DNA of 64,000 bases from Patescibacteria group bacterium (GTDB lineage: Bacteria; Patescibacteriota; Patescibacteriia; UBA2196), in contig DAIUDD010000002.1 in the NCBI GenBank assembly GCA_036845805.1, forward strand, positions 55,868 through 119,867. The letters run 5' to 3'. The position numbers were made by a program, and so were the translations under genes. The stretch's first letter is position 1, and every line of letters starts with the position of its first letter. Positions 1 to 47,411 of the stretch are shown one piece after another. Under the pieces are notes generated by a model. That model made no database searches. It was not told the origin of the DNA and saw only the letters and a program-made list of their open reading frames with translations.

Positions 1-104
1 AGAGCGCGTAGTTTATCAAACAAAAAAATTATAAAAGTGACAAGATTTATAAAAATTAAATAATAAAATAGTGGTAACATGTTTTTTACTTATTAATTTT
101 ACCT

Positions 105-150
105 TAAAAATAAAAAAAACAAAAATCCTGCCGTTAAACAGACAGGATTT
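105..150 (-). terminator. Rho-independent terminator downstream of rpsI (hairpin aatcctgccgttaaacagacaggatt followed by a T-run on the minus strand)
   Basis: Perfect stem-loop at 124-149 followed by a U-run in the direction of minus-strand transcription. Confidence 0.6.
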
Positions 151-199
151 TAAAATAAAAATAATGATCTAAAAATAATTAATAAAACAAATGGCGGTT

Positions 200-700
200 T
201 TAACGCTTACTCCATTGTGGGGCACGGCGAGCTCTTTTTAAACCAAACTTCTTACGTTCTTTGGCTCTAGGATCGCGAGTTAAATAACCATGAGATCGTA
301 AAGATGGGCGATATTCTTCGTTGAATTCAATCAAAGCGCGGGCAATACCTAAACCTACCGCCGCTGCCTGTCCTGATTTGCCACCACCATTAACTTTAAC
401 ACTAAAATCAAAGGAGGTTCTTTTGCCCACAATATCTAAAGGTCCAGTAACCTTGTTTTTAAGTTCAAAATAAGGGAAATATTCGTCTAGTTTTTTATTA
501 TTAATTAAAATTTCGCCCTGACCGTTTGGTATAAGCCGAACCCGGGCGACAGCTTCTTTGCGGCGACCCAAAGCACGAGTAAATTCATCTTTAATCTTGG
601 TCGCGGATACGACCTGTTTTTTTATTACAGCCCTTTTTTCAGTTAAATCTCTTTTAACTTTTTGATGTTGAATTGTCTTTTTTGATTCTTTTTTAAGCAT
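200..700 (-). CDS. rpsI: 30S ribosomal protein S9 with an N-terminal extension of about 35 aa
   Basis: C-terminal GGGKSGQAAAVGLGIARAL...RDPRAKERKKFGLKRARRAPQWSKR is the canonical S9 signature; lies adjacent to rplM. Confidence 0.9.
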   Translation of the reverse strand: MLKKESKKTIQHQKVKRDLTEKRAVIKKQVVSATKIKDEFTRALGRRKEAVARVRLIPNGQGEILINNKKLDEYFPYFELKNKVTGPLDIVGKRTSFDFSVKVNGGGKSGQAAAVGLGIARALIEFNEEYRPSLRSHGYLTRDPRAKERKKFGLKRARRAPQWSKR

Positions 701-709
701 ATATGAAAA

Positions 710-1057
710 TTAAACAAATTTTAACCTTTTCATCATGGCAGTTCTTAGTTTGTTTTTAGGTAGCATATAATAAACAGCACGACTAAAAACCTTGGTTGGA
801 TTTTTTTGCCAAACATCTTTCAATTTGGTAGTGCGCAAATGCCCCACATAACCAGTATGTTTGTGATAAACTTTTTGTTCCATTTTGCGCCCGGTGAATT
901 TAAGCGCTTGGACATTTTTAATAATAACAATATCACCCTCATCAGAAGCGGGATTGAAAGTGGCTTTATTTTTACCACGCAATAACAAAGCCACGGCGGT
1001 CGCGGCGCGACCGACCGATTGTCCGGTTAAGTCAATAGTGTGAGTGTTTCGAGTCAT
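710..1057 (-). CDS. rplM: 50S ribosomal protein L13
   Basis: Sequence MTRNTHTID...GRAATAVALLLRGKNK...VYHKHTGYVGHL is typical of L13; conserved rplM-rpsI pair. Confidence 0.9.
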   Translation of the reverse strand: MTRNTHTIDLTGQSVGRAATAVALLLRGKNKATFNPASDEGDIVIIKNVQALKFTGRKMEQKVYHKHTGYVGHLRTTKLKDVWQKNPTKVFSRAVYYMLPKNKLRTAMMKRLKFV

Positions 1058-1063
1058 AAATTA

Positions 1064-1414
1064 TTAAACAAATTCAATTAAAGACAATTGGGCGTTATCG
1101 CCGCGACGGTTTTTAATTTTTATAATACGCAAATAACCGCCTTGACGGCTTTGATAGCGCGGAACAATAACTTCAAACATTTTCTTCATGGCTTTTTCCG
1201 TGGTCAGTTTGTTTCTAACTAAACGGCGATTAGCCAAGGTATCTTTTCTGGCGCGCGTAATCAATCTTTCTAAAAGCGGGCGAATTTCTTTGGCCTTGGC
1301 CTCGGTAGTAGTTACTTTTTCATATAATATTAAAGAAGTGAGCAAATTTTTTAATAAAGCTCTGCGTGGACCAGATTTTCTATCTAATTTTCTTTTGGTT
1401 TTCTGATGTTTCAT
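1064..1414 (-). CDS. rplQ: 50S ribosomal protein L17
   Basis: MKHQKTKRKLDRKSGPRRALLKNL...QGGYLRIIKIKNRRGDNAQLSLIEFV; lies downstream of rpoA as in the alpha operon. Confidence 0.9.
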   Translation of the reverse strand: MKHQKTKRKLDRKSGPRRALLKNLLTSLILYEKVTTTEAKAKEIRPLLERLITRARKDTLANRRLVRNKLTTEKAMKKMFEVIVPRYQSRQGGYLRIIKIKNRRGDNAQLSLIEFV

Positions 1415-1423
1415 AATTATTTT

Positions 1424-2245
1424 TTAAACTTCAGTGGTGTCGTTTTTTTTCTTGCGACCACGTTTCTTGGGTTTAGGTTCTTCACTTTCTTCTCTTGACA
1501 CTATTGATTGATTACTAGTGTCAAGATTAAGTTCAGCCTCTTCTTTTAATTCTTTTCTGTAATCTAAGAAAAAAGAAAATTGATCAATTAAAATTTGCGC
1601 TGATTTTTTTAAAGCCTCTTCGGGAGTAACAGTCCCATCAGTCTCAATATATAAAAGTAAACGATCCCAATTAGTCATTTCGCCCACCCGCACATTTTCT
1701 GTATCGACCGCCACCCGCTTAACTGGCGAGAAAAAAGCATCGATAGCAATCATGCCAATTTCTTTATCGCGAGTTTTCATCATCTCGGTTGGTAGATAAC
1801 CACGGCCTTTTTCTAACCACGCTTCTAAATTAAATTCTGCCTGATCTTCAGTAATGGTGGCAATAACCAACTCAGGATTAGTAATTTTAACACCAGCAGT
1901 TTTTTTGAAATCACCAGCCAAAACTTCACCAGCGCCAGTTTTGTTTAATTCCATTTTAATTGGCTCTTCAAAATCACCATCAACTTCAAAACGCACCTGT
2001 TTTAAATTAAGAGAAATATCCACCGCATCTTCTTTAACCCCCTTAACTGCCGAGAACTCATGATCTACACCTTGGAGACGAATAAAAGTAATGGCGGTGC
2101 CTTCTAAAGAAGAAAGCAAAACACGACGTAAAGCATTACCCAAAGTTAAGCCATAACCCGGGTAAAGCGGCTCAATAACAAATTTGCCCTGATTGGCGCC
2201 AGTGGTGTTAAAGTCTTTTTTTTGAGCGATGGGGATAGATAACAT
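1424..2245 (-). CDS. rpoA: DNA-directed RNA polymerase alpha subunit, N-terminal domain only; no recognisable alpha-CTD
   Basis: PLYPGYGLTLGNALRRVLLSSLEGTAITFIRLQGVDHEFSAVKGVKEDAVDISLNLK matches the alpha NTD; start chosen at internal Met (MLSIPIAQ, 2245) by alignment with E. coli alpha; protein ends in a Lys/Arg-rich tail about 40 aa after the NTD. Confidence 0.85.
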   Translation of the reverse strand: MLSIPIAQKKDFNTTGANQGKFVIEPLYPGYGLTLGNALRRVLLSSLEGTAITFIRLQGVDHEFSAVKGVKEDAVDISLNLKQVRFEVDGDFEEPIKMELNKTGAGEVLAGDFKKTAGVKITNPELVIATITEDQAEFNLEAWLEKGRGYLPTEMMKTRDKEIGMIAIDAFFSPVKRVAVDTENVRVGEMTNWDRLLLYIETDGTVTPEEALKKSAQILIDQFSFFLDYRKELKEEAELNLDTSNQSIVSREESEEPKPKKRGRKKKNDTTEV

Positions 2246-2323
2246 ATTGATTGCTAGACAGTGTTGGTTTGTCAAATTAAGAAATAAATAAGACAAACCA
2301 ACAATGAAAATAATTTATATTGA

Positions 2324-2959
2324 TTATTTAGAATAAAACTCAACAATTAAACGCGGGTCAACGCCGATTTGCAATTCATCACCTTCGGGTAAAGCTAGCA
2401 CAACACCTTGACCTTTTTCTTTGTCCCAAGAAAGCCAAGAAGGCAACAGACCTTCGGTGGTTGATAGACTTTTTAAATTTTCGGCCAAAGAACCTTTGAT
2501 TTTGGTTTTTTCTTTACGAATAGTAATAATATCACCAACCCTTACTTGATATGATGGAATGTTGTTTTTTTTATGATTAATTAAAAATAAGCTATGGCCA
2601 ATAAATTGGCGCGCTTGTGCTCGAGTTAAAGCTAAACCCAAACGATAAACAACATTGTCCAGACGACGTTCCACAATTTCAATTAATTTAAAGCCACTAT
2701 TGCCCTTACTTTTTACCGCTTCATTAAAATATTTACGCAATTGGCGCTCCATTAAACCATACATGACTTTTAATTTTTGTTTTTCTTGCAAATGTAAACC
2801 ATAATCAGTAATGCGCTGATAACCTTTAGGACCGTGTACGCCTGGAGGATAATTTCTTTTTACCAGCGCGCACTTGCCATCGCCCCGCTCGCCCTTACCA
2901 CATAATTTTATACCCAGGCGGCGGCATTGTTTACATTTAGGATTTAAATTTCTAGCCAT
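2324..2959 (-). CDS. rpsD: 30S ribosomal protein S4
   Basis: MARNLNPKCKQCRRLGIKLCGKGE...LDNVVYRLGLALTRAQARQFIGH matches S4. Confidence 0.9.
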   Translation of the reverse strand: MARNLNPKCKQCRRLGIKLCGKGERGDGKCALVKRNYPPGVHGPKGYQRITDYGLHLQEKQKLKVMYGLMERQLRKYFNEAVKSKGNSGFKLIEIVERRLDNVVYRLGLALTRAQARQFIGHSLFLINHKKNNIPSYQVRVGDIITIRKEKTKIKGSLAENLKSLSTTEGLLPSWLSWDKEKGQGVVLALPEGDELQIGVDPRLIVEFYSK

Positions 2960-4601: not shown

Positions 4602-5813
4602 TTAATTGTTTTTTATTACCACCTGGACCCTATTAGCCCAATTGGGAATGCGCTTACCCATACCAAGAGAAAAGACAAAACGGGCATCTTTAATATAGGG
4701 CAGAGATAATAAATAACGACGAGCTTCGCTTTCGTTCTTGCCTAAAATATTTTTTTTAATCTCATCTAAGTCAACTTTCTTAACCACTGGAAAAGTGGCT
4801 TTAATTTTTAAATCAGCCAGACCTAAATTAAAATCGGCTTGAGCATTAATGATTTCAAGACTAATGTTTTCGGCCTCACCCAAAGATTGATCTGCTTTTA
4901 AGTTGTTAGAAAATTTATCCCGAAGAACCTGGCGCATTTCTTTTTGAGAAAAAATCAAGGCTGATGCTTTTAGGGTTAAGGACAAATCAAATTCCTTCAT
5001 TTTGCTATCGGCCGCAACTTCTGGCGAAATACTGGTAACTTCGTAAGAAATTAATTGTTCGACTACTGATAAATTATCACCGGCTTCTTGGCGCAACTTG
5101 TCTTTCAATTTTATTTGCAAATTTTTAGTTAATTTATCCTTGGCTTGATCAAGATCTTCTTGCGAAACAACGGTAACAATATTAGAAGTTCCGCCTTGCA
5201 AAGGGCCGGATAATTGGCCGTAAATTTTATCTTGTTTTTCCCAGGGCAGCGAGTTGATATTAAAACGACCAGTAGTGCCATTAGCTTTATCACCAGCTTC
5301 TTTTGCTTCCACTACCACCTGAATTTGACCAGGCACGACCCTGCCTTCGGCATCAACTTTGGCACCGGGAATGGTTATTGTTTCTTTAACTCGCACAATA
5401 ACACCAGTGATGGTCATTAAATCAACATCAGGAGTTACTGGTTGAGAGGGTCCGGTAGTGTTATAAAATATAGCTTGCCCACTAGCTTTTTGACCCAAAT
5501 CTTTTTGCCCAGTAGCATTAAATTTTTCCTTAATCGATTCTTCGGCGGTTTTTAATTCGGCAACAAAAATATTATTGGCAGGATCACTCTTGGTTTGGTC
5601 GGTAGTTAATTTAAGATCTAATTCTTGAGTCATGTTTTCGGCGGTCAAAACCAAATTAACAGTGACCTGAGGAAAAAAATAGTTAAAAAGGAAAAATAAA
5701 ATTAATAGACCAGCAAAAAAAAGCCACCACTTTTTATGACGTGATACTCCTTTAAGGGGTTTATGAGAAGAAGGAAAATTTTTTTGATAGGCACCAAATT
5801 TGGTAGTAATCAT
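4602..5813 (-). CDS. Hypothetical N-terminally membrane-anchored protein, paralogous to 53491..54636
   Basis: Single TM helix (WWLFFAGLLILFFLFNYFF) followed by a large extracytoplasmic domain; shares blocks with the 53491 ORF (TVNLVLTAEN/TITLTLGEEN, GQAIFYNTTG/GQVKIINNST, TIPGAKVDAEG/SIPAGKETMA). Confidence 0.6.
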   Translation of the reverse strand: MITTKFGAYQKNFPSSHKPLKGVSRHKKWWLFFAGLLILFFLFNYFFPQVTVNLVLTAENMTQELDLKLTTDQTKSDPANNIFVAELKTAEESIKEKFNATGQKDLGQKASGQAIFYNTTGPSQPVTPDVDLMTITGVIVRVKETITIPGAKVDAEGRVVPGQIQVVVEAKEAGDKANGTTGRFNINSLPWEKQDKIYGQLSGPLQGGTSNIVTVVSQEDLDQAKDKLTKNLQIKLKDKLRQEAGDNLSVVEQLISYEVTSISPEVAADSKMKEFDLSLTLKASALIFSQKEMRQVLRDKFSNNLKADQSLGEAENISLEIINAQADFNLGLADLKIKATFPVVKKVDLDEIKKNILGKNESEARRYLLSLPYIKDARFVFSLGMGKRIPNWANRVQVVIKNN

Positions 5814-5822
5814 AAAAACAAA

Positions 5823-7700
5823 CTAAGATAGAACTGCTTTAATTCTTCTCACGCCGGCTGAACTGGCTTCTTCTTTAATAATTTTGAAAGCCCCGAGTTC
5901 GCCGGTATTTTTGACATGTGGCCCACCGCAAATTTCACAACTAAAATTTTCAGCTAAATTATTCGGGTCGCACACAGAATAAACTTTTACCTGATCGCCA
6001 TATTTATCAGCAAAGACGCCAATCGCACCTTTGGCTTTAGCTTCCGTGACAGTCATTTCTTCGCAAGTTACATCCATCTTCTTATTTATCATTTCATTAA
6101 CCAAATCTTCCGCTTGCTTAATCTGCTCCGCTGTCATTTTTTCACTATGGGAAAAATCAAACCGCATTCTCTCTTCGGTAATATTGGAACCTTTTTGATA
6201 AATATGAGGACCCAATACTTTGCGCAAAGCAGCATTCAATAAATGGGTGGCAGTATGATATTGGGTCACTTTTTCGGAATGGTCAGCCAGGCCGCCTTTA
6301 AATTTTCCGGCCGCGGCTGTGCGTGAAAGTTCCTGATGTTTTTGCATTTCAATATTAAAACCACTTTCATCAACTGCCAATCCTTTTTCTTTGGCCAACT
6401 CTTTAGTCAATTCCAAAGGAAAACCAAAACTTTGGAATAAATTAAATGCTACAATTCCCTTAATTTCTTTATCTCTGGTTGCTTCAGCAACCATCCCGCC
6501 ATGGCGGGATGAAAGCGGAGCTTCCAATTTCTTAGTTTCTTTTTCAAATTCCTTTATTCCCTCTTGCAACGTCTGAGTAAATTTTTCTTCCTCCACCTGT
6601 AAATTATCAAGCACAAATTTACGGCTACGATCTAATTCCGGATAAACATCATTCATTAAATTAATTACCACTGTCGCAATTTGGTGAGTAAAATTTTCTT
6701 TAATGCCAAGCAGGCGGCCATGGCGAATGGCACGACGAATTAATTTCCGCACCACATAGCCTTGGTCCACATTAGCGGGCGCAATACCATGATCATCGCC
6801 CATAATAAAAGTAACCGCCCGCAAATGATCAGCAATAATGCGCATCGATCTGATAGTCCCCTCCTTTTCAAGGAGGGGCCCATGCCCCGCAGGGGCAGAG
6901 GGGGTGGTTATGTATTTTTGCCCAGATAACTCTTCAATCTTTTGAATAATTGGTAAAAATAAATCTGTTTGATAATCATCATCCAAACCACTTATCACGG
7001 CTAAATTTCTTTCCAAGCCAGTGCCATTATCAATGTTTTTTTGATTGGCTGGTTTATATTTATTCTCCCCTATTTTTTCGTATTGCATTAAAACATCATT
7101 GCCAATTTCTACCCAGCGCTTGTCCGAGGGATCAAAAACTTTTGGCGCTGGTCCTTTTTTATCAACCCAATAAAACATCTCGGTGCACGGGCCGCAGGGG
7201 CCAGAATTGCCAGTTGGTTCCCACCAATTGTCTTTTTTGGGCAAAGATTTAATTCTATCTTGATCAATTCCGAGTTTTTTCCAAATTTCAATTGATTCAT
7301 CATCGCGTGGCGCATTTTCATCACCAGCAAAAACAGAGACGGCCAAAAATTTTTTATCCAAGCCAAGCTCCTTTGTAACAAACGCAAAAGTCATTTTCAA
7401 GGCTTCCTCTTTCCAATAATCTCCTATTGACCAATGACCGAGCATTTCAAAAAATGTGTGGTGAAAGCCGTCGCCGACTTCATCAATGTCACCAGTGCGA
7501 ACGCATTTTTGCGAATTAACTAGTCGCGCGCCAGCTGGATGTTTTTCGCCAAGCAAAAATGGCACGAGCGGGCTCATGCCGGCAGTGGTAAATAAAATTG
7601 AGGGATCATTTTCTGGAATTAAAGAAGCGCTCGGGATTTCTGCATGCCCATTTTTTTTAAAAAATTCAATGTATTTTTGCCGCAATTCTTTAGAAGTCAT
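5823..7700 (-). CDS. alaS: Alanyl-tRNA synthetase, short form (625 aa): catalytic, tRNA-recognition and editing domains present; no C-Ala domain
   Basis: N-terminal class II motifs, internal HTATHLLNAALRKVLGPHIYQKGSNITEERMRFDFSH editing-domain signature, and a metal-binding C..C.GGPHV site near the C-terminus. Confidence 0.9.
   Translation of the reverse strand: MTSKELRQKYIEFFKKNGHAEIPSASLIPENDPSILFTTAGMSPLVPFLLGEKHPAGARLVNSQKCVRTGDIDEVGDGFHHTFFEMLGHWSIGDYWKEEALKMTFAFVTKELGLDKKFLAVSVFAGDENAPRDDESIEIWKKLGIDQDRIKSLPKKDNWWEPTGNSGPCGPCTEMFYWVDKKGPAPKVFDPSDKRWVEIGNDVLMQYEKIGENKYKPANQKNIDNGTGLERNLAVISGLDDDYQTDLFLPIIQKIEELSGQKYITTPSAPAGHGPLLEKEGTIRSMRIIADHLRAVTFIMGDDHGIAPANVDQGYVVRKLIRRAIRHGRLLGIKENFTHQIATVVINLMNDVYPELDRSRKFVLDNLQVEEEKFTQTLQEGIKEFEKETKKLEAPLSSRHGGMVAEATRDKEIKGIVAFNLFQSFGFPLELTKELAKEKGLAVDESGFNIEMQKHQELSRTAAAGKFKGGLADHSEKVTQYHTATHLLNAALRKVLGPHIYQKGSNITEERMRFDFSHSEKMTAEQIKQAEDLVNEMINKKMDVTCEEMTVTEAKAKGAIGVFADKYGDQVKVYSVCDPNNLAENFSCEICGGPHVKNTGELGAFKIIKEEASSAGVRRIKAVLS
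6856..6912. repeat. Family-2 palindromic element (cccctccttttcaaggagggg ... cagagggggtggttat) inserted in-frame inside alaS
   Basis: Same hairpin plus ggggtggtta module as the intergenic copies at 7712-7801, 26577-26650 and 26781-26945; encodes the extra segment TPSAPAGHGPLLEKEGT just before the conserved RIIADHLRA block. Confidence 0.7.
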
Positions 7701-7711
7701 GTGGTGTTGTT

Positions 7712-7801
7712 AGTCCCCGCCTTATGAAGGCGGGGCCTCATGTTCCACCACCCTTGTGGTGAGTGGAACAGAGGGGGCGGTTAATAAGATCGCCGATAGG
7801 C
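7712..7801. repeat. Family-2 palindromic element, intergenic copy upstream of alaS
   Basis: gtccccgccttatgaaggcggggc shows compensatory changes relative to the cccctcc/ggagggg copies, so the stem is conserved; shares the 3-prime module ggttaataagatcgccgataggc with the 26577 copy. Confidence 0.7.
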
Positions 7802-7847
7802 AAAATAAATGTTATTTATATAATTTTTATTTTAACAAAAATTGACT

Positions 7848-7900
7848 AAAAAAGCAATTTTAAATATCAAAAAACCGCTTGTCTAACAAACGGTTTTTTG
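7848..7900. terminator. Bidirectional terminator-like hairpin (aaaaaccgcttgtctaacaaacggtttttt)
   Basis: Stem aaccg/cggtt flanked by an A-run and a T-run. Confidence 0.45.
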
Positions 7901-7924
7901 TCTTATCTTTCATTCGCCAACCAT

Positions 7925-8195
7925 TTTTATCTCAAGAGAGTTTGGTAGATAAAATTAATAATGATTGACGAGTGAAAGAAAGGAACTGGCTAAATTGTGA
8001 TATTCTCCGTTCCTTATTGTTTTTAAAACCCCAAAAAAGGGGTGCGAGCTCGGTATCCGGATCTGTGAATATTGGATACCTTCCTGAACTGTGTCTGGTA
8101 CTCGCGCCAGACAAGGGAAGTTCTCACGTCTATAACTTCCGAACGTAGTCATAGCTTACGGCGTATGACCGCCTTTTTAATAAGTCTCTGGTGTA
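7925..8195. ncRNA. Putative structured non-coding RNA at the 3-prime end of a high-GC island; strand and family unknown
   Basis: At least five perfect 6-7 bp stems within 270 nt (aaggaac/gttcctt, acccc/ggggt, ggtatcc/ggatacc, ggaagtt/aacttcc, gtcata/tatgac); one longer stem needs a U-G pair on the plus strand; no long ORF; no match to tmRNA, RNase P or SRP signatures that I can recognise. Confidence 0.25.
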
Positions 8196-8196
8196 T

Positions 8197-9614: not shown

Positions 9615-10146
9615 AATTTCTCCAATTTTTTAACCGACGCCCAATTGCGCCAGTAAACCAGTATGCTCTGGATTGGAGAATCTTGCCACCGCTTCTATTT
9701 CTTTTTTTAAGAAACAAAAGTGGTGGCAAAAAAAATTTTAAAGAACTTTTTTTCTATTGACTGTGGTGAAGACGATTTTCTTAGTAAGAGGCAGATCAAT
9801 AAACAATGTTTGTTAATATCCGCGTTACTAATGTCTCTCTTCTCCACCACGGTCCTTAGAAACAAAAAAGTCTTCTACTGTTCAAGAGAGAAGACCATAA
9901 TTAATAAATCTAATAAAAATTGACTTGTTGTAGGGCTCGCAGTGCCTACCAGACTGTCTCTCTTGTTTTAATCCTAAATTGTAAAGATTAAAATTTATCT
10001 CACATTTTTTATTTTGTATATCTTATTATAGCACACTTGTATAATTTTGTCAATAGATAGATTGTGTATAAATAAAAAAATTACCTAAAATTAGCTAAAT
10101 TAAAGACGTGATAAATCACGTCTCTACAACCATAATTATTACTTTT

Positions 10147-10180
10147 CCTTAATTTCTTAGTTTCTTAATTTCTCTATTTC
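10147..10180. repeat. Family-6 short repeat, T-rich orientation (ccttaatttcttagtttcttaatttctctatttc)
   Basis: Reverse complement shares 23 identical nt (agaaattaagaaactaagaaatt) with the copy at 12746-12777. Confidence 0.6.
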
Positions 10181-10184
10181 TTTT

Positions 10185-15280: not shown

Positions 15281-15302
15281 AAATTAATTAGGAATAACTT
15301 GT

Positions 15303-15365
15303 TGGTTCAGGATTACACCCTGAACCTTTTTTGTTATAAAAAAACCCCGTATAAACGGGGTTAAG
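15303..15365. terminator. Pair of convergent terminators (ggttcaggattacaccctgaacc + T-run for corA; aaccccgtataaacggggtt for the minus-strand ORF)
   Basis: Two perfect hairpins, each followed by a U-run on the appropriate strand. Confidence 0.65.
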
Positions 15366-15383
15366 CTGAATTATCTCTCACTT

Positions 15384-15629
15384 TTATTTTTTAGAAGCCA
15401 AATCTGTTAAACCGGCGACATTGGTAATTTTAATTAAGCCGGTATTTTTATCCCTTTGTAAAACATCGTCTTGATTTTCTAATTCTTCCAACAAAATCAA
15501 GACGTCTTCTTCTTCGTCAATGTTGAATTCCCAAAGCACATCATTTAGTGGTATGGCCTGGTCTTCTACCTCATCGAGTTGCAATAATAAAAAAATGCAC
15601 AACTTTTTCTTTAATGCTTTACGGGTCAT
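15384..15629 (-). CDS. Hypothetical small acidic protein (81 aa)
   Basis: ORF with its own terminator; no family recognised. Confidence 0.4.
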   Translation of the reverse strand: MTRKALKKKLCIFLLLQLDEVEDQAIPLNDVLWEFNIDEEEDVLILLEELENQDDVLQRDKNTGLIKITNVAGLTDLASKK

Positions 15630-15694
15630 GTGGCCCTCCTAATTTATCATCTTTGCCAAAATAACTTTTTTAAGATAAAATAAACTTACCATTT

Positions 15695-26529: not shown

Positions 26530-26532
26530 ATG

Positions 26533-26567
26533 TTAGAAACTAAGAAATTGAGAAATTAGAAACTAAG
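26533..26567. repeat. Family-6 short repeat, A-rich orientation (gttagaaactaagaaattgagaaattagaaactaag)
   Basis: 17-nt core identical to 12761-12777; inverted partner at 27653-27690. Confidence 0.6.
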
Positions 26568-26576
26568 GGTTCCAAG

Positions 26577-26650
26577 CTCCCCTCCTTTTCAAGGAGGGGC
26601 GATAGAGGTGATAGCCTCATCGGGGTGGTTAATAAATCGCCGATAGGCGG
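26577..26650. repeat. Family-2 palindromic element
   Basis: cccctccttttcaaggagggg + ggggtggttaataaatcgccgataggcgg. Confidence 0.7.
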
Positions 26651-26742
26651 ATAGTTTCCCTTTATTTCTCTTTTTCTTTATTTCTTAATTACTTTTTCAT
26701 TTATCCCCAACTTTTTTAATCTATTTCCATTATACAAAACAA

Positions 26743-26769
26743 TTAGCACTCGTGTCAAGCGAGTGCTAA
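26743..26769. promoter_or_regulatory. CIRCE operator (HrcA binding site) ttagcactc-N9-gagtgctaa
   Basis: Perfect match to the CIRCE consensus TTAGCACTC-N9-GAGTGCTAA, upstream of hrcA-grpE. Confidence 0.85.
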
Positions 26770-26780
26770 ATGGATTAGCA

Positions 26781-26945
26781 GTCCCCTCCTTTTGAAGGAG
26801 GGGCCTTAAGCCCGAAGGGCTAAGGTGGTGGTTATGGTATTTAGAATTAATTTTATCTTAATGTTATAACCACCCCCGTCTCTGCTTCGCAGAGTCGCCC
26901 GTTAATGTTTGCCGTTGTGGCAAACATTAACTTTAAAAGGAGGGG
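26781..26945. repeat. Composite family-2 palindromic elements (two hairpin modules plus the perfect hairpin gttaatgtttgcc-gttgt-ggcaaacattaac)
   Basis: cccctccttttgaaggagggg ... ggtggtggttat and, inverted, ataaccacccccgtctctg. Confidence 0.65.
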
Positions 26946-27062
26946 ATAAAAAGCTAATTTTAGCCAAAATTTCTATTAGCTATTGACATAATAATAATAA
27001 GATATAATGGTGACATAAATTTTTTAACTTTTTCACAAATCACAAATCAGGGAGGCAAAAAA

Positions 27063-27652: not shown

Positions 27653-27690
27653 CCCTTAATTTCCAATTTCTTAATTTCTAGTTTCTATTG
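27653..27690. repeat. Family-6 short repeat, T-rich orientation
   Basis: Reverse complement reads caatagaaactagaaattaagaaattggaaattaaggg; overlaps the rnhA stop codon. Confidence 0.55.
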
Positions 27691-28091
27691 TCAATCGCCT
27701 CATTTACCAGCTTATCTGCCAGTTTATTTTGTTCGCGAGGAACATGTTTAAAAATTATCTTTTTAAAACTTTGGCGTAAATTAAAAATTTTAATAAAACT
27801 ATCTTGAAAATCAGGATTTTTTAATTTATATTGGCCATTAATTTGTTTGCAAACAAGTTCGGAATCCAAGCGCACCTCGACTTCAGTGACGCCAAGTTTT
27901 TTTGCTTCTTCCAAGCCCAAAACCACAGCTTTATATTCTGCTTGATTATTGGTTGTTTCGCCAATATATTTTTTGTGTAGATACAAAGGTTTGGTTAAAT
28001 TTTTGGCATCAAAAATCACCGCGCCAATGCCAGCGGGCCCTGGGTTGTTACGAGCGCCACCGTCAGTATAAATGATAAGTTTTTTATTCAT
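27678..28091 (-). CDS. rnhA: Ribonuclease HI
   Basis: IYTDGGARNNPGPAGIG...NNQAEYKAV...HVPREQNKLADKLVNEA (DEDD catalytic residues in the canonical order). Confidence 0.85.
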   Translation of the reverse strand: MNKKLIIYTDGGARNNPGPAGIGAVIFDAKNLTKPLYLHKKYIGETTNNQAEYKAVVLGLEEAKKLGVTEVEVRLDSELVCKQINGQYKLKNPDFQDSFIKIFNLRQSFKKIIFKHVPREQNKLADKLVNEAIDNRN

Positions 28092-28098
28092 AGTTTGA

Positions 28099-28519
28099 GG
28101 TTGTCATTCCGAGGAGTAAAGCGACGAGGAATCCCGTGTGATTACCAGCACCCCGGTTTTCCAAAATCGCTCCCAAATTAAACTTAAATCATTAAAATTT
28201 GGATTTATTAGTTTAATTAAATTTATCTTCTTTTCCCTTCTCCATCCTTTGATTTCTTTTTCTCGTTTTATAGCTTCAAGCGGTTTATTAAAACATTCAA
28301 AATAAACTAACTTATTAATATTATACCTTTTTGTAAAACCTTCTTTCTTTTTTCTTTCATGCTGTTTATCTCTATTAGGCAGATATCCAGAAATACCAGT
28401 ATAAAAAACAGTGTTTCTTTGATTAGACATGATGTAAGTACAATAATTTTTTGGTCTTTTGATTCTCATATTTGTTATGATAACACGGGATCCTTCGCTA
28501 ATCGCTCAGGATGACAACC
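28099..28519. mobile_element. Family-1 palindromic element split into two halves by a GIY-YIG nuclease gene
   Basis: Left half ggttgtcattccgaggagtaaagcgacgaggaatcccgtgtgat (28099-28142) and right half atgataacacgggatccttcgctaatcgctcaggatgacaacc (28476-28519) form a 43-bp imperfect inverted repeat; the 366-bp GIY-YIG ORF lies exactly between them. Confidence 0.5.
28104..28469 (-). CDS. GIY-YIG nuclease family protein (YhbQ/COG2827-like)
   Basis: YIMSNQRNTVFYTGISGYLPNRDKQHE...LVYFECFNKPLEAIKREKEIKGWRREKKINLI matches the GIY-YIG motifs; the last 15 codons and the stop are encoded by the repeat half. Confidence 0.8.
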   Translation of the reverse strand: MRIKRPKNYCTYIMSNQRNTVFYTGISGYLPNRDKQHERKKKEGFTKRYNINKLVYFECFNKPLEAIKREKEIKGWRREKKINLIKLINPNFNDLSLIWERFWKTGVLVITRDSSSLYSSE

Positions 28520-36192: not shown

Positions 36193-37083
36193 TTATAAAA
36201 TTTTTATGGCTATTAAAGTGCGCTCGTGACCATATTTACTTGGATCTTTATTAATTAATTCCTTTTCCAAAAGAAACAAAGATCTTTGATTTTTGTTCCT
36301 AATAAATTCAATAAATCTGCTTTCAGCCAAATATTCATAATAACCATCGGTACCTAAAACAATCAAATCTTCTGATGCTAACTTTATTTTACCACAATCT
36401 AAATATTTAATGGCTTTTTCTTCGCCCGTAACAACGCCATAACCAATCTTTTTACTATTTTTAAAACCATTGCGTAAAAATCGGCGAATAAAAATATGTT
36501 TGGCATTTTCATCAAAAATTTTAGACATTTTCATAAAGCGCCAACCATCAGGCGAACAAAATTTTTGTTTGCCTTGTTTATCAAACACAGCCACAAAAGC
36601 GTCGGCAATAGTACTCCAATATAAATAATTATCTTTTAAGATTACATTGGCCGCAGTGCAAGCAAATAAATCAAAATCTAGGTAATTTATCTTGTTCTTA
36701 ATTCGACCATGAGAATCATTAATTTTTTTAACAGCCTGATTACCAAATTTAAAAATGTCTTTTAGAGAATTTAAATTAAAATTATCATATAACTGGCTGC
36801 TCTTTTTTACTGACTGTTTGGCAAATATATCAGCCACTAAATAGGCCCCGGAAGGATTAGGATAGCCAAATTCTCTTTTAGGATCAAGGGTAACGCCGTC
36901 GGTAACACAAAAAATGGGAAATTTTTTGCTAAAACACAAGGAATCTTCTTGTGGCCAATTTTTATATTGGTATAATTTTTGAATACTTTTTTCTTTTATT
37001 TTAGCCGAGTATCTTTTTTTGGCTAAATTAAAAAAATCTCGAGACACTGGTCGATAAATAGAAAAAAAATGATACTTTAACAT
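36193..37083 (-). CDS. Hypothetical protein, distantly PP2C/SpoIIE-like
   Basis: FCVTDGVT... and LIVLGTDGYYEYL resemble PPM phosphatase metal-binding motifs; weak. Confidence 0.35.
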   Translation of the reverse strand: MLKYHFFSIYRPVSRDFFNLAKKRYSAKIKEKSIQKLYQYKNWPQEDSLCFSKKFPIFCVTDGVTLDPKREFGYPNPSGAYLVADIFAKQSVKKSSQLYDNFNLNSLKDIFKFGNQAVKKINDSHGRIKNKINYLDFDLFACTAANVILKDNYLYWSTIADAFVAVFDKQGKQKFCSPDGWRFMKMSKIFDENAKHIFIRRFLRNGFKNSKKIGYGVVTGEEKAIKYLDCGKIKLASEDLIVLGTDGYYEYLAESRFIEFIRNKNQRSLFLLEKELINKDPSKYGHERTLIAIKIL

Positions 37084-37124
37084 GTTTTTTTAAATCTTGA
37101 TTTAATAATTTGTTCTTTACCACA

Positions 37125-37265
37125 CTACGGACAAAACCAATCTTTTCTTTTATTTGGGGCATCGCCAATCCCCCACCATTTATGACAATGCCCACAATTA
37201 AAATGATAAAATTTTTCCAAACTTACCCGGCCAGTAATTTTTTTATTTTTTATTTTATTTTTCAT
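37125..37265 (-). CDS. Small zinc-ribbon-like ORF (46 aa) ending at an in-frame TAG inside a would-be CPxCG motif; possibly a pseudogene or a stop-codon readthrough gene
   Basis: MKNKIKNKKITGRVSLEKFYHFNCGHCHKWWGIGDAPNKRKDWFCP-TAG-CGKEQIIKSRFKKTC-TAA; the ATG overlaps the TGA of the upstream gene (ATGA); the TAA abuts the ATG of the 36193 gene. Confidence 0.35.
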   Translation of the reverse strand: MKNKIKNKKITGRVSLEKFYHFNCGHCHKWWGIGDAPNKRKDWFCP

Positions 37266-38395
37266 GATTGATTTTTGTGTAAAATATCTTGGTAATGATC
37301 TAAAAAATAACTTTCAAAATCTTCGCTGCCGCTTGTGCTATAAGCCGCAAAAAATTGCCAAATTCTTTCAGACAAGATATCTCGCCCGTATTTCTCATAA
37401 TACCTCCTCATTATTTTATCATTTGTTAATAATTCTGTAACGCTCGCCGCCATAGCAGCACCTTCTTGTTGTTTTTCATCGTTCAACATCTTTTGTAATT
37501 TTGATTTATCAGCACTTAATAATTTAGCTCTAAAATTATCAAAACTTGGCTCATTTTCTTTTTTAAATCCTGTTTTATAAGTCCTAATTATTTCTTCGGT
37601 TAAAATACTTTGGGGATATTGGTAACTTTTTAATTTATTAGGACAAAGTTCTAAAATTATTTTTTCATCATCTGCGGAGAGCTTAATCTTTTCCATGACC
37701 GGATTAATTATGCTGTGCAAAAATTCATGAATTTCATTAATTTCGTTGCCAAGCTCGGCGCTGACATAATAATTTTCATCTATCTCCAAACCGTAGCCTG
37801 ATTGTTCCTTGGTTAAAGGGTTGGTTGGCAAATAAATAATTTTTTTGAGGCGCGATGGCCGAGGATTAAAAAATTTTATTGCTTCATTAATCTTCCTCTC
37901 TAATTCTGGAAGTTGCTCTTTTCTTTTATCAATATCATGACTAGTAAAATTTATGATCTCAGATAAGTCTATTTTTTCTTTTATCTGCAAATAAAAACTA
38001 ATGAATCTCAAAAGTAGTTCTAAAGCATCTTCCTGGTTAAAATCCTTGTATTTAACCATTTGATCAATAATTGCCTGCTGTGATTTTTGGTCTTTTCCAG
38101 CCACAAAAGCTAACCATCTTAAAGTTTCCTCGTCGTCATGAGCTAATCGTTTAATTTCGTCATAAGCAGTTAATAATTCCTCGCTTATTTCAACTTGTTG
38201 ATTTTTAATTATTTCGGTCGCCTGTTTATTTTGTTCATTTCCCCAACGATGGTCGATTGTTTTTGAGATGGCAGAAAATATAATACTTGATTCTATATCA
38301 CTAAAACCACCAATTTCAATTTTTGGTTCAAATTTTTCTTTTTGTTCGTTTTCATTAATTTCTATTTTAATGTCCATAATTATTAGCCATGACAT
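37262..38395 (-). CDS. Hypothetical protein with an HExxH zinc-metallopeptidase motif (NEIHEFLHSIIN)
   Basis: Single HEFLH motif; start ambiguous (Met at 38395 or 38377). Confidence 0.45.
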   Translation of the reverse strand: MSWLIIMDIKIEINENEQKEKFEPKIEIGGFSDIESSIIFSAISKTIDHRWGNEQNKQATEIIKNQQVEISEELLTAYDEIKRLAHDDEETLRWLAFVAGKDQKSQQAIIDQMVKYKDFNQEDALELLLRFISFYLQIKEKIDLSEIINFTSHDIDKRKEQLPELERKINEAIKFFNPRPSRLKKIIYLPTNPLTKEQSGYGLEIDENYYVSAELGNEINEIHEFLHSIINPVMEKIKLSADDEKIILELCPNKLKSYQYPQSILTEEIIRTYKTGFKKENEPSFDNFRAKLLSADKSKLQKMLNDEKQQEGAAMAASVTELLTNDKIMRRYYEKYGRDILSERIWQFFAAYSTSGSEDFESYFLDHYQDILHKNQS

Positions 38396-38468: not shown

Positions 38469-41288
38469 TTATTTGCCATGACAATGCTTAAATTTAATTG
38501 GTGAGCCATCTGGTTTAGTCGCTCCGCATGGGCAGGGGTCATTACGGCCGACTTTTTCTTTATTCACAGTTAATTTGGAGTTTACATCTACTTGTTGCTG
38601 ATCGCTAAAAACTTGTCGCTGACTGGCGGTTGGCGAAACAGAAACTTTAAAAATAGAATAGACAACTTGCCTTCTGATATTTTCCAACAACTCTTTAAAC
38701 AGGCGGTGAGCTTGATTTTTATATTCCACCAGTGGATCTTTCTGGCCATAACCCACGAGGCCAATACCGGTTCTCATGTGATCCATGGCATCAATATGCT
38801 CGACCCACAAAGTATCAATCGAGCGCAAAAGAATGGTGGTCTCGATTAAATTCATGGGCTTTATTTTTTCGCCAAATTGCTTTTTAAGATTTTCATCATT
38901 ATTAATTTTGTTTTCAAGTTCCGTGTATTGCTCTGCAGCTAACTGATAAAAATAGTTAATCAATTTTTCTTTTAAATTATTGCCCTCAATTTCTTTATTT
39001 CTTAATTGCTCTATTTCCAGTGTTTCTTTGGCAGAAAAGATCGTGTTCATAACCTCGAAAATCTCTTTTAGATTCCACTCGCTTTCATGTTCGCTTGAGG
39101 TGTGAAAATTAACCACATTCACAATTTCATCTTTAACATAATCTAAAACAATTTCCCTTAATTTCTTTATTTCTTTATTTCTTAATTTCTCATTATCTTG
39201 TCCGCGTAAGTCAGCGTTATCTTCCGCGTTAGTCCGCGCTAATAATAAGATTTCATTTCTTTTGCGATAGATGGTTTCGCGATGCTTATTAATCACGTCA
39301 TCATATTCAACCAAGTGTTTTCTAATGTCAAAATTATGTCCTTCAACTTTCATCTGCGCTTTTTCAATGGAATTAGAAATTAATTTATTTTCAATGGGCA
39401 TGCCGTCAGGCAAACCCAAAGTGTTCATTAAAGATTTTAATCTTTCGCCGCCAAAAATGCGCATCAAATCATCTTCCATGGAAACAAAAAATTGTGATTC
39501 ACCCGAATCCCCCTGACGGCCAGCACGACCGCGCAATTGATTATCAATCCGTCGCGACTCATGACGTTCCGAACCAATCACACATAAGCCCCCCGCGGCC
39601 TTAACCTTTTCTTGTTCTGACAAATCAGGCGGATTGCCACCAAGAATAATGTCGACACCGCGGCCGGCCATATTGGTAGCAATAGTGACGGCACCTAATT
39701 TTCCGGCTTGAGCGATAATTTCGGCCTCTTTTTCGTGTTGTTTAGCATTTAAAACTTGGTGTGGCACACCAGCACGAGATAATAACTCAGATAAATATTC
39801 ATTATTTTCAATAGAAATGGTACCCACTAAAACTGGTTGGCCTTTTTCGTGTCTCTTTTTAACTTCTTGCACAATAAAATTATATTTTTCCTCAACAGTT
39901 TTTAAAATTACATCGGATTTATCTAGGCGCACCATGGGTTTATTAGTCGGAATAATAATAACATCTAAATTATAAATCTTAGCAAACTCCTCGCCCTCGG
40001 TCGCAGCCGTGCCGGTCATGCCGGATAATTTTTGATACATGCGAAAATAATTTTGAAAAGTAATGGTGGCCATGGTAACTGATTCTTGCTTAATTTGCAC
40101 CCCTTCCTTGGCTTCAATGGCTTGATGCAAACCATCAGAATAGCGCCGACCAAGCATTAAGCGGCCAGTAAACTCGTCGACAATAATAATTTCGCCGTCT
40201 TTAGTCACATAATCACGGTCTTTTTTAAATAAAACGCGAGCACGCAGCGCCTGTTCAACATGGTGAACATCGCGAATGCCTCGATCAGTATAAATATTTT
40301 CTACACCTAACCATTTTTCCATTTTTTTAATACCCGCTTCTGTCAAAGTGGCGCTTTTCATTTTTTCATCAATATTGTAATCAGTGTTTTCTTCCAGACG
40401 GGAAACTAATTGAGAAAATTGCCGATATTTATCAGTTGGTTCGGAATCAGGCGCGGAAATAATTAAAGGAGTGCGCGCCTCATCAATTAAAATTGAATCA
40501 ACTTCATCGACAATAACAAAATGCAAAGAACGCTGAACTTTATAATTCAAACTTTGTACCATGTTATCACGCAAATAATCAAAGCCAAATTCATTATTAG
40601 TACCATAAGTAATATCAGCCCCATAAGCTAGTCGCCGCGGCACTGGTAATAAATAATCTTCCACTATTTTATACCCACCCACCACATCGCGTTTTTTATC
40701 TAATTCATCTTTTTTATCATTTTGAATTTCTAAATTTGAATTTGTTTCTGATTTCGGATTTTGAATTTCTGATTTATCTTGATAAAGATAGGCTATTTCA
40801 TGATTTAAACAACCAGTGCTTAAACCCAAATAAGCATAAACTTGCCCCATCCAAACAGCATCGCGACGAGCTAAATAATCATTAACGGTAATCACATGGA
40901 CTCCGCGGCCAGTTAAGGCATTTAAATAAACGGCAGCGGTAGCAGCCAAGGTTTTACCTTCACCGGTTTTCATTTCCGAAATATTGCCTTCATGTAAAAC
41001 CATGCTAGCCAAGAGCTGCACATCATAATGTCGCTGGCCCAAAGTTCTTTTAGCGGCCTCGCGTACCAAGGCAAAACATTCCGGTAAAATTTCGTTTAAA
41101 ATATTTTGTTGCTCGGCATATTCCTTGTCGGCTAGTTTTTCTTTAAATTCTTGGGTTCGCTGCTTAAATTCGGACGCAGTTAAACTCTGGATTTTTTGTT
41201 CCAGAGCATTGATTTCCTCAACTCGTTTTTGTAGACGATTGATAACTTTTTCATTAGCATCGCCAAATATTTTTGATAAAAGAGACAT
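38469..41288 (-). CDS. secA: Preprotein translocase ATPase SecA
   Basis: DEAD-like motor motifs, full length, C-terminal zinc site CPCGATKPDGSPIKFKHCHGK; contains AT-rich low-complexity in-frame inserts. Confidence 0.9.
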   Translation of the reverse strand: MSLLSKIFGDANEKVINRLQKRVEEINALEQKIQSLTASEFKQRTQEFKEKLADKEYAEQQNILNEILPECFALVREAAKRTLGQRHYDVQLLASMVLHEGNISEMKTGEGKTLAATAAVYLNALTGRGVHVITVNDYLARRDAVWMGQVYAYLGLSTGCLNHEIAYLYQDKSEIQNPKSETNSNLEIQNDKKDELDKKRDVVGGYKIVEDYLLPVPRRLAYGADITYGTNNEFGFDYLRDNMVQSLNYKVQRSLHFVIVDEVDSILIDEARTPLIISAPDSEPTDKYRQFSQLVSRLEENTDYNIDEKMKSATLTEAGIKKMEKWLGVENIYTDRGIRDVHHVEQALRARVLFKKDRDYVTKDGEIIIVDEFTGRLMLGRRYSDGLHQAIEAKEGVQIKQESVTMATITFQNYFRMYQKLSGMTGTAATEGEEFAKIYNLDVIIIPTNKPMVRLDKSDVILKTVEEKYNFIVQEVKKRHEKGQPVLVGTISIENNEYLSELLSRAGVPHQVLNAKQHEKEAEIIAQAGKLGAVTIATNMAGRGVDIILGGNPPDLSEQEKVKAAGGLCVIGSERHESRRIDNQLRGRAGRQGDSGESQFFVSMEDDLMRIFGGERLKSLMNTLGLPDGMPIENKLISNSIEKAQMKVEGHNFDIRKHLVEYDDVINKHRETIYRKRNEILLLARTNAEDNADLRGQDNEKLRNKEIKKLREIVLDYVKDEIVNVVNFHTSSEHESEWNLKEIFEVMNTIFSAKETLEIEQLRNKEIEGNNLKEKLINYFYQLAAEQYTELENKINNDENLKKQFGEKIKPMNLIETTILLRSIDTLWVEHIDAMDHMRTGIGLVGYGQKDPLVEYKNQAHRLFKELLENIRRQVVYSIFKVSVSPTASQRQVFSDQQQVDVNSKLTVNKEKVGRNDPCPCGATKPDGSPIKFKHCHGK

Positions 41289-47012: not shown

Positions 47013-47411
47013 GGACTTAGTTTAACATAAAATTGTTCACTTTTCAAGATTTATGACTAAACAAAAAATACCGATTGAACGGTATTTTTGTTTTTGTTTT
47101 TTGAATTGTATTTTACAAGGAACGCCTCGTTTGTCGAGGTTTATTTTTTATACCCCGGCCTGATTATTTTTTGCGGCTATTTTTATTTTTTTTAGCCGCC
47201 GATTGGCCAGTGGCTAAATTAAATAAAAATGAGAGAGCTTAAAAAAATAATAAGTGACAGAAGGAAAAAAATTTTAGTGTAAAGAGCAAACTCGGGCGTG
47301 ACCACAAAATACAATTCTTTTAAAGGTGCGGGCATAAGTGAATTTTGCGCTTATTCGAACCAACAGTAATAAGTATAGCATGAATTTTATAAAAAGTCAA
47401 ACAAAAAAATG

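Follow-up and report, generated by a model that had tools for sequence, protein, structure and literature searches.

The stretch of DNA analysed here, called the window, covers 64,000 nucleotides (64 kb) of contig DAIUDD010000002.1 (assembly GCA_036845805.1, positions 55,868 to 119,867, forward strand) from a Patescibacteria group bacterium, and the feature in question is a small zinc-ribbon gene that is interrupted by an in-frame amber codon. The window is part of a densely coding (~90%) bacterial chromosome of ~36% G+C that uses the standard code, and genes for SecA, GatB, thymidylate kinase, PFOR, acetate kinase, AlaRS and RodA were identified in it. Relatives of the locus are found in metagenome-assembled genomes (MAGs) of Patescibacteria, the candidate phyla radiation (CPR). 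The zinc-ribbon open reading frame (ORF) lies on the minus strand and extends over 62 codons, from an ATG at 37265-37263 to a TAA at 37079-37077. A plus-strand reading of this segment gives a nonsense translation and was rejected. Codon 47 is a TAG (37127-37125; CTA on the plus strand, with the altered base at 37126), and the frame translates as MKNKIKNKKITGRVSLEKFYHFNCGHCHKWWGIGDAPNKRKDWFCP-TAG-CGKEQIIKSRFKKTC-TAA.

A first-pass annotation, made from the sequence alone, had described most of this arrangement, although it did not state the strand. The overlap of the zinc-ribbon ATG with the stop codon of the upstream HExxH gene (TGA at 37264-37262) is present, and the succession of CGHC, 17 residues and CP-TAG-CG is correct on translation. 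The far end of the frame had to be revised. The frame does continue beyond the TAG, over 15 sense codons instead of 14 (13 when counted from the CG), so that the read-through product has 62 residues and not 61. The frame had been said to end at 37083, with a TAA abutting the ATG of the next gene; it reaches the TAA given above, which overlaps that ATG (37083-37081) in the sequence ATGTTAA. Cys24, Cys27 and Cys45 precede the TAG and Cys48 is encoded behind it, and the window ORF does not bring the four zinc-ligand cysteines together in one translated product. At the place of the near-invariant tryptophan of the second knuckle (CPWCG), the window has the TAG.

A profile built from 99 homologues and run against the six-frame translation of the window matched this ORF only (68.1 bits, E = 1e-22), well beyond what chance would produce. 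The match spans model positions 3-55 and is unbroken across the TAG. Since the same profile, in all six frames, finds no second, intact copy, there is no compensating gene within the window. A word-indexed search returned the 46-residue product itself and one orthologue of 56 residues (P0002), and an exhaustive HMMER search with P0002 yielded 468 clusters (50% identity) at E <= 1e-3. Family members are ~55-65 residues long and come mostly from Patescibacteria, with a few from Anaerolineae and Verrucomicrobiota. Their signature is E-x-[LF]-x-H-F-x-C-x-x-C-x-K-W-W-[ST]-I-G-D-A-P ... W-[FY]-C-P-W-C-G-x-x-Q, and over 103 homologues the invariant or near-invariant positions are E17, H21, F22, C24, C27, W30, W31, D35, C45, P46, W47, C48 and G49; all but one of these homologues carry the four cysteines in one chain. 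The window frame keeps E17, H21, F22, K29, W30, W31, I33, G34, D35, A36, P37, W43, F44, P46, G49 and Q52, and is 71-75% identical to the intact orthologues P0002 and L096, the latter being the locus of the closest relative. Among the three closest genes dN/dS is ~0.07, which indicates strong purifying selection on the family. The value for the window against L096 equals that of the intact pair formed by L096 and L007, the next closest relative, and no excess of amino-acid change was detected on the window branch.

Assignment to a curated family was attempted and rejected, as Pfam, NCBIfam, the Protein Data Bank (PDB) and Foldseek yielded only a generic, sub-threshold resemblance to zinc ribbons. 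NCBIfam has no relevant match or model for the family. The Pfam gathering thresholds were not reached (the best match of the window is CoiA_N, 17.7 bits for a cutoff of 26.3), and the Pfam matches of other members are weak (E ~1e-6 to 1e-2) and concern generic zinc ribbons. A sequence search of PDB gave only weak matches (rubredoxin, RPO12, S27), Foldseek against PDB gave a best E-value of 0.4, and a search of the literature on a secA-linked zinc ribbon in Patescibacteria brought up nothing relevant. The closest known proteins are generic zinc-ribbon or rubredoxin-like knuckle proteins, namely Zn_ribbon_8 (PF09723), DUF5817 and HVO_2753-like proteins, and structurally S27e, LysW, RbpA and Tim15. 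Like them, the family has two CxxC-type knuckles separated by ~17 residues, with a CPxCG-type motif in second place, and a predicted four-stranded ribbon; unlike them, it has motifs of its own (ExLxHF, KWW[ST]IGDAP and W[FY]CPWCG) that occur in none of those families. It is a separate, uncurated and uncharacterised family, enriched in Patescibacteria and often encoded beside secA. In the AlphaFold model of an intact orthologue (predicted local distance difference test score, pLDDT, of 88) the protein forms a ribbon of four strands, and both the last of these (residues 48-50) and the fourth cysteine lie past the position of the stop.

The stop had been thought to fall at the one position of the motif that tolerates any residue. 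The alignment contradicts this premise: at the supposedly variable letter of the knuckle, 95 of the 103 homologues have Trp, and the other eight have Y, H, F, R or L. At the nucleotide level, the codon is TGG in 80 of the 81 loci obtained from the scan of the genome collection or from the L007 lookup, TAC in one, and a stop in none. All 11 metagenome loci of the closest clade, defined by 'KWWGIGDAP', also have Trp at the knuckle; the pattern used to retrieve them leaves the knuckle untouched, and it returned other species only, none of them from the population of the window. Altogether, the 92 other loci with an intact knuckle show one codon other than TGG (the TAC) and no stop at this place. 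The closest relative reads CCG TGG TGC (L096) and the next one CCG TGG TGT (L007). L096 is syntenic with the window, with secA followed further on by the zinc ribbon, a PP2C-like gene and a gene for a 440-residue protein; identities are 77% for SecA, 72% for the PP2C-like protein and 70% for the 440-residue protein. Because homologues, other loci and both nearest relatives have Trp or TGG at this position, the TAG is, on comparative grounds, derived from TGG by a single G>A transition (C>T at plus-strand position 37126). The same alignment bears out the earlier expectation that read-through would give a complete C4 zinc ribbon, as C48 is present in 102 and G49 in 101 of the 103 homologues. It had also been considered that the 46-residue form would be genuine if orthologues lacked the downstream CG; they were compared and keep this Cys-Gly, which argues that the short form is not native.

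The TAG is real and is fixed in the sampled population. The same 46-residue ORF was retrieved from six assemblies with six sample accessions (ENA, JGI, Logan), by a look-up that catches only contigs encoding exactly this product. These assemblies stem from different builders (MEGAHIT-type, SPAdes and JGI pipelines), are 99.95-100% identical at the DNA level over 1.8-6.9 kb, and are identical around the TAG. Two of them (L004 and L005) share a single-nucleotide polymorphism (SNP) at window position 38079, so that two haplotypes or more exist, both with the TAG. The product is also found in two NCBI MAG protein records, HPI67128.1 and HPL95479.1, as a hypothetical protein. No full-length allele of this species was present in the 90%-identity cluster of the 46-residue product, drawn from ~15 billion proteins, and the sole other member of this cluster is the L096 orthologue.

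Within the window, TAG is an ordinary terminator. Among 60 long ORFs, 48 end with TAA, six with TAG and six with TGA, and the six terminal TAGs stand in TAG-T, TAG-A and TAG-C contexts, like the zinc-ribbon site. RodA and an RNase H-like protein, both TAG-ended, finish 3-5 residues past the end of their Pfam profiles. A survey of in-frame TAG codons in other conserved genes, which the first-pass annotation had proposed, was run on the window by examining all same-frame ORF pairs split by one stop, and no other gene was found interrupted by a TAG. Real genes flank such a TAG junction in just two other cases. The first joins a 291-residue ORF to RodA, and was rejected as a single split gene, RodA being complete alone. 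The second joins AlaRS to a 403-residue ORF, and was rejected as well, the homologues of the 403-residue protein being standalone proteins of 400-412 residues, unlike AlaRS; this in-frame junction is a coincidence. A genome reading UAG as sense should rarely use TAG at gene ends and should have several genes interrupted by it, and the window shows neither. It contains no tRNA (ARAGORN), no Rfam element and no pyl gene. Nor was a stable RNA structure detected 3' of the zinc-ribbon TAG, where 101 nucleotides around and after the codon fold worse than shuffled sequences (z = +1.16).

A stop was also found in a sister lineage, at another codon of the same gene. In loci L099 (3926-4096) and L100 (1911-2081), a TGA replaces the first conserved tryptophan, W30 (CGK-stop-WGIGDAP), and the other 55 codons are intact. 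Both loci were found by anchoring on the PP2C-like neighbour, independently of the state of the zinc-ribbon gene, which is flanked there by the PP2C-like gene and PTAC. The two strains are mutually 99.2-99.7% identical, and their TGA likewise amounts to a G>A change of a TGG. Of the four species-level lineages in this small subclade, two therefore carry a stop (the window, and L099 with L100), L096 and L007 being intact. In more distant PP2C-like loci (L101-L108) no zinc-ribbon gene is found nearby. In the protein collection, homologues of the PP2C-like protein drop from 100% identity straight to 72%, which leaves no closer relative by which to date the mutation. When the TGG is restored in the window ORF, nine GC>AT transitions can create a stop, and eight of the nine lie in its four Trp codons. 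G>A (C>T) changes are the commonest type of spontaneous mutation in an AT-rich genome. Since TGG is one G>A away from TAG, and Trp codons hold eight of the nine sites, the placement of the stop within the knuckle needs no special explanation. Two independent Trp-to-stop events suggest that the gene is dispensable in this subclade, and the simplest reading is that selection is relaxed and that a small gene, being dispensable, decays repeatedly under AT-biased mutation.

We thus consider it probable that the TAG is an ordinary nonsense mutation, and that the zinc-ribbon gene of the window is a young, inactivated pseudogene. In this lineage the Trp TGG of the second knuckle has become TAG by a single G>A change, which has spread through the sampled population. 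According to this scenario, translation would stop after residue 46, releasing a product devoid of the fourth zinc ligand and of the last beta-strand, and background misreading of UAG would supply at best traces of the full-length protein. The 15 intact codons behind the TAG would simply not have decayed yet. The mutation is probably young, because there is no excess of change on the window branch, the 3' codons are undamaged (CGKEQ is identical to L007) and the population is near-clonal. Among the three possibilities offered by the first-pass annotation, a recent nonsense mutation is the one that gains support, from the ancestral TGG, the reproducible TAG and the normal use of TAG as a stop. 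Its overall interpretation holds for the nonsense mutation and for the ribbon restored by read-through, and fails for the variable position. The case resembles an ordinary bacterial nonsense pseudogene at a Trp codon by its single G>A, its AT-rich genome, its normal stop usage, its intact remainder and the parallel TGG>TGA. No evidence distinguishes it from such pseudogenes, the twist being a tiny gene whose codons overlap both neighbours.

Some points weigh against this reading. The 46-residue protein is most likely non-functional, but we infer this loss of function from its sequence. As continued translation would also predict, the codons behind the TAG show no damage and still specify the conserved C, G and Q; given the few sites and the nearly clonal population, this clean 3' segment cannot discriminate between decay and translation. 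Stops at Trp codons in two of four lineages, in a gene otherwise perfect, are a somewhat high rate for chance decay. Finally, the contig measures ~722 kb, of which the window covers 64 kb, and a suppressor tRNA could sit elsewhere in the genome.

These points bring in functional read-through, in which a leaky or suppressed UAG (through a near-cognate or suppressor tRNA, or a weak RF1) would yield enough 62-residue protein for selection to act on. The intact C48, G49 and Q52 and the lack of excess non-synonymous change on the window branch agree with it, and so does the tolerance of the family for Y, H, F, R or L at the knuckle, since Tyr, commonly inserted at UAG, would be acceptable there. 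The sister lineage adds an equally clean gene with a TGA at another Trp, and UGA is classically misread by tRNA-Trp. We nevertheless regard read-through as unlikely, and the programmed form evoked earlier is unsupported: TAG ends six of the 60 genes in the same contexts and at the ends expected from Pfam, the window offers no other TAG-interrupted gene, no tRNA and no downstream structure, none of the 92 other loci has a stop at the knuckle codon, and a recent mutation in a near-clonal population should leave the 3' segment clean in any case. The locus does share with known UAG recoding systems (pyrrolysine, amber-recoded phages and genomes, amber suppressor tRNAs) an in-frame UAG with a conserved frame continuing behind it. 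It differs from them in that a single site occurs per 64 kb, and in that TAG ends 10% of the genes at expected places; it also differs from pyrrolysine systems in that orthologues encode Trp here, so that the site is not of the Pyl type, and the window holds no tRNA or pyl gene. A broader proposal would have the gene kept functional throughout the subclade despite the UAG at W47 and the UGA at W30, by correction at the RNA level or by context-independent read-through, with a conditional full-length output; we hold this to be quite improbable. 

One such correction would be adenosine-to-inosine (A-to-I) editing of the messenger, turning the UAG (and the UGA of L099) into UIG or UGI, read as Trp, so that the genomic stop would be apparent only. 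Stops edited to Trp are known from the amber/W site of hepatitis delta virus and from fungal stop-loss editing, and in-frame stops at conserved Trp codons are the genomic signature of eukaryotic stop-to-Trp editing. Both stops in this family do replace a conserved Trp, which an A>G change would restore at each, as in the TadA, hepatitis delta virus and fungal cases. However, TadA, the only known bacterial mRNA A-to-I editor, needs a UACG in a hairpin resembling an anticodon arm (PMC12255301). The sites CCG-UAG-UGU (window) and AAG-UGA-UGG (L099) both lack UACG, and, unlike TadA sites, the window stop has no predicted hairpin on its 3' side. TadA-type editing was rejected on this motif, and with Trp codons being in any case the expected target of GC>AT nonsense changes, editing in general appears very improbable. 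Hardly better placed, at about the level of the subclade-wide proposal above, is the idea that the 46-residue form itself is functional, as a three-cysteine variant, a zinc-sharing dimer or a device coupling the HExxH gene to the PP2C-like gene. The start codon does still overlap the upstream stop, the form is fixed in all sampled contigs and its 46 residues retain every conserved family position. Yet no family member stops short of the fourth cysteine, either among the 103 proteins or among the 92 loci, the orthologues do keep the CG segment, and in the model both the fourth ligand and the last strand lie past the cut. The least credible explanation is a sequencing or assembly error hiding a TGG. 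Such an error would account for a codon that is one base off the family consensus, but the identical TAG in six assemblies made with differing assemblers, in two NCBI records and in both haplotypes excludes it at the assembly level, and the local sequence, CCGTAGTGT, is not a homopolymer.

As a nonsense mutation, the event is of an ordinary and already well understood kind, a routine single-base change in a small gene, and the apparent precision of its placement vanishes once the alignment reveals the Trp codon. In practical terms, HPI67128.1 and HPL95479.1 represent a truncated product and should carry a pseudogene flag. In addition, the family is widespread and strongly conserved without any Pfam or NCBIfam model, and could merit one.

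Table 1. Features of the zinc-ribbon locus, in window coordinates.
Feature	Position	Strand	Remarks
Truncated ORF, 46 codons + TAG	37125..37265	-	N-terminal three quarters of the ribbon, without the fourth Cys; 46-residue hypothetical protein in public MAGs
Amber codon TAG replacing the near-invariant Trp TGG	37125..37127	-	Family alignment and loci of relatives
Severed 3' end of the ancestral gene, 15 sense codons (CGKEQIIKSRFKKTC) + TAA	37077..37124	-	Still fits the family profile
296-residue PP2C-like gene	36193..37083	-	ATG inside the final codons of the ancestral zinc-ribbon frame (ATGTTAA)
377-residue gene with HEFLH at residue 223	37262..38395	-	TGA overlaps the zinc-ribbon ATG (ATGA); between secA and the zinc ribbon
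secA	38469..41288	-	Commonest same-strand upstream neighbour of the zinc-ribbon family (32/92 loci)

The locus is presented in Table 1. The last beta-strand is encoded by the severed 3' end, together with the fourth cysteine and the conserved Gly and Gln. The tendency of the family to lie downstream of secA is visible in the window, where secA is one gene away from the zinc ribbon, with the HExxH gene in between. This HExxH gene is specific to the lineage, being missing from L096, L099 and L007. Other recurrent neighbours of the family (loci L007-L098) are NUDIX, AI-2E transporter, CYTH, ThrRS, YchF and GyrB genes. On the other side, the premature TAG makes translation end 41 nucleotides upstream of the PP2C-like ATG; at L096, the zinc-ribbon stop is 3 nucleotides before the start of the next gene. 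With termination this early, the PP2C-like gene may be less tightly coupled to the zinc ribbon in translation. Shine-Dalgarno-like motifs precede only nine of the 60 long ORFs of the window, and in many cases the start codon of a gene overlaps the stop codon of its neighbour, so that initiation in this genome probably relies little on Shine-Dalgarno pairing; with such sequences being this rare, the effect on coupling is unpredictable.

The stretch between secA and the zinc ribbon varies in every close relative. It is occupied by the HExxH gene in the window (37262-38395), by two ORFs of 215 and 147 residues at L096 (2045-3145), and by three small ORFs and the PP2C-like gene at L099 (2012-2856). 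The 36-38 kb region is the segment of lowest G+C content in the window (30%, versus ~36%).

Some further observations were made in the course of the analysis. Five intergenic gaps of ~400-570 nucleotides (7701-8196, 9615-10184, 15281-15694, 26530-27062 and 47013-47411) are unusually long for a compact genome, and contain no tRNA and no Rfam match. AlaRS (5823..7700, minus strand) has 625 residues, ends with a TAG and is without the C-terminal C-Ala/DHHA1 domain; the 403-residue ORF (4602..5813, minus strand) follows three codons on in the same frame and has no Pfam or PDB match. At 27678-28469 (minus strand), an ORF of 121 residues for a GIY-YIG nuclease and one of 137 residues for an RNase H/RVT_3-like protein share the same frame, parted by one TGA and four codons. 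The MAG with the SecA closest to that of the window (77.6% identity) is labelled Gammaproteobacteria and evidently belongs to Patescibacteria; there (L027:2-2586) secA shows up in two pieces, the ORFs 2..1417 and 1789..2586, separated by a gap of ~370 nucleotides, a split for which inserted sequence, a frameshift or faulty assembly could account.

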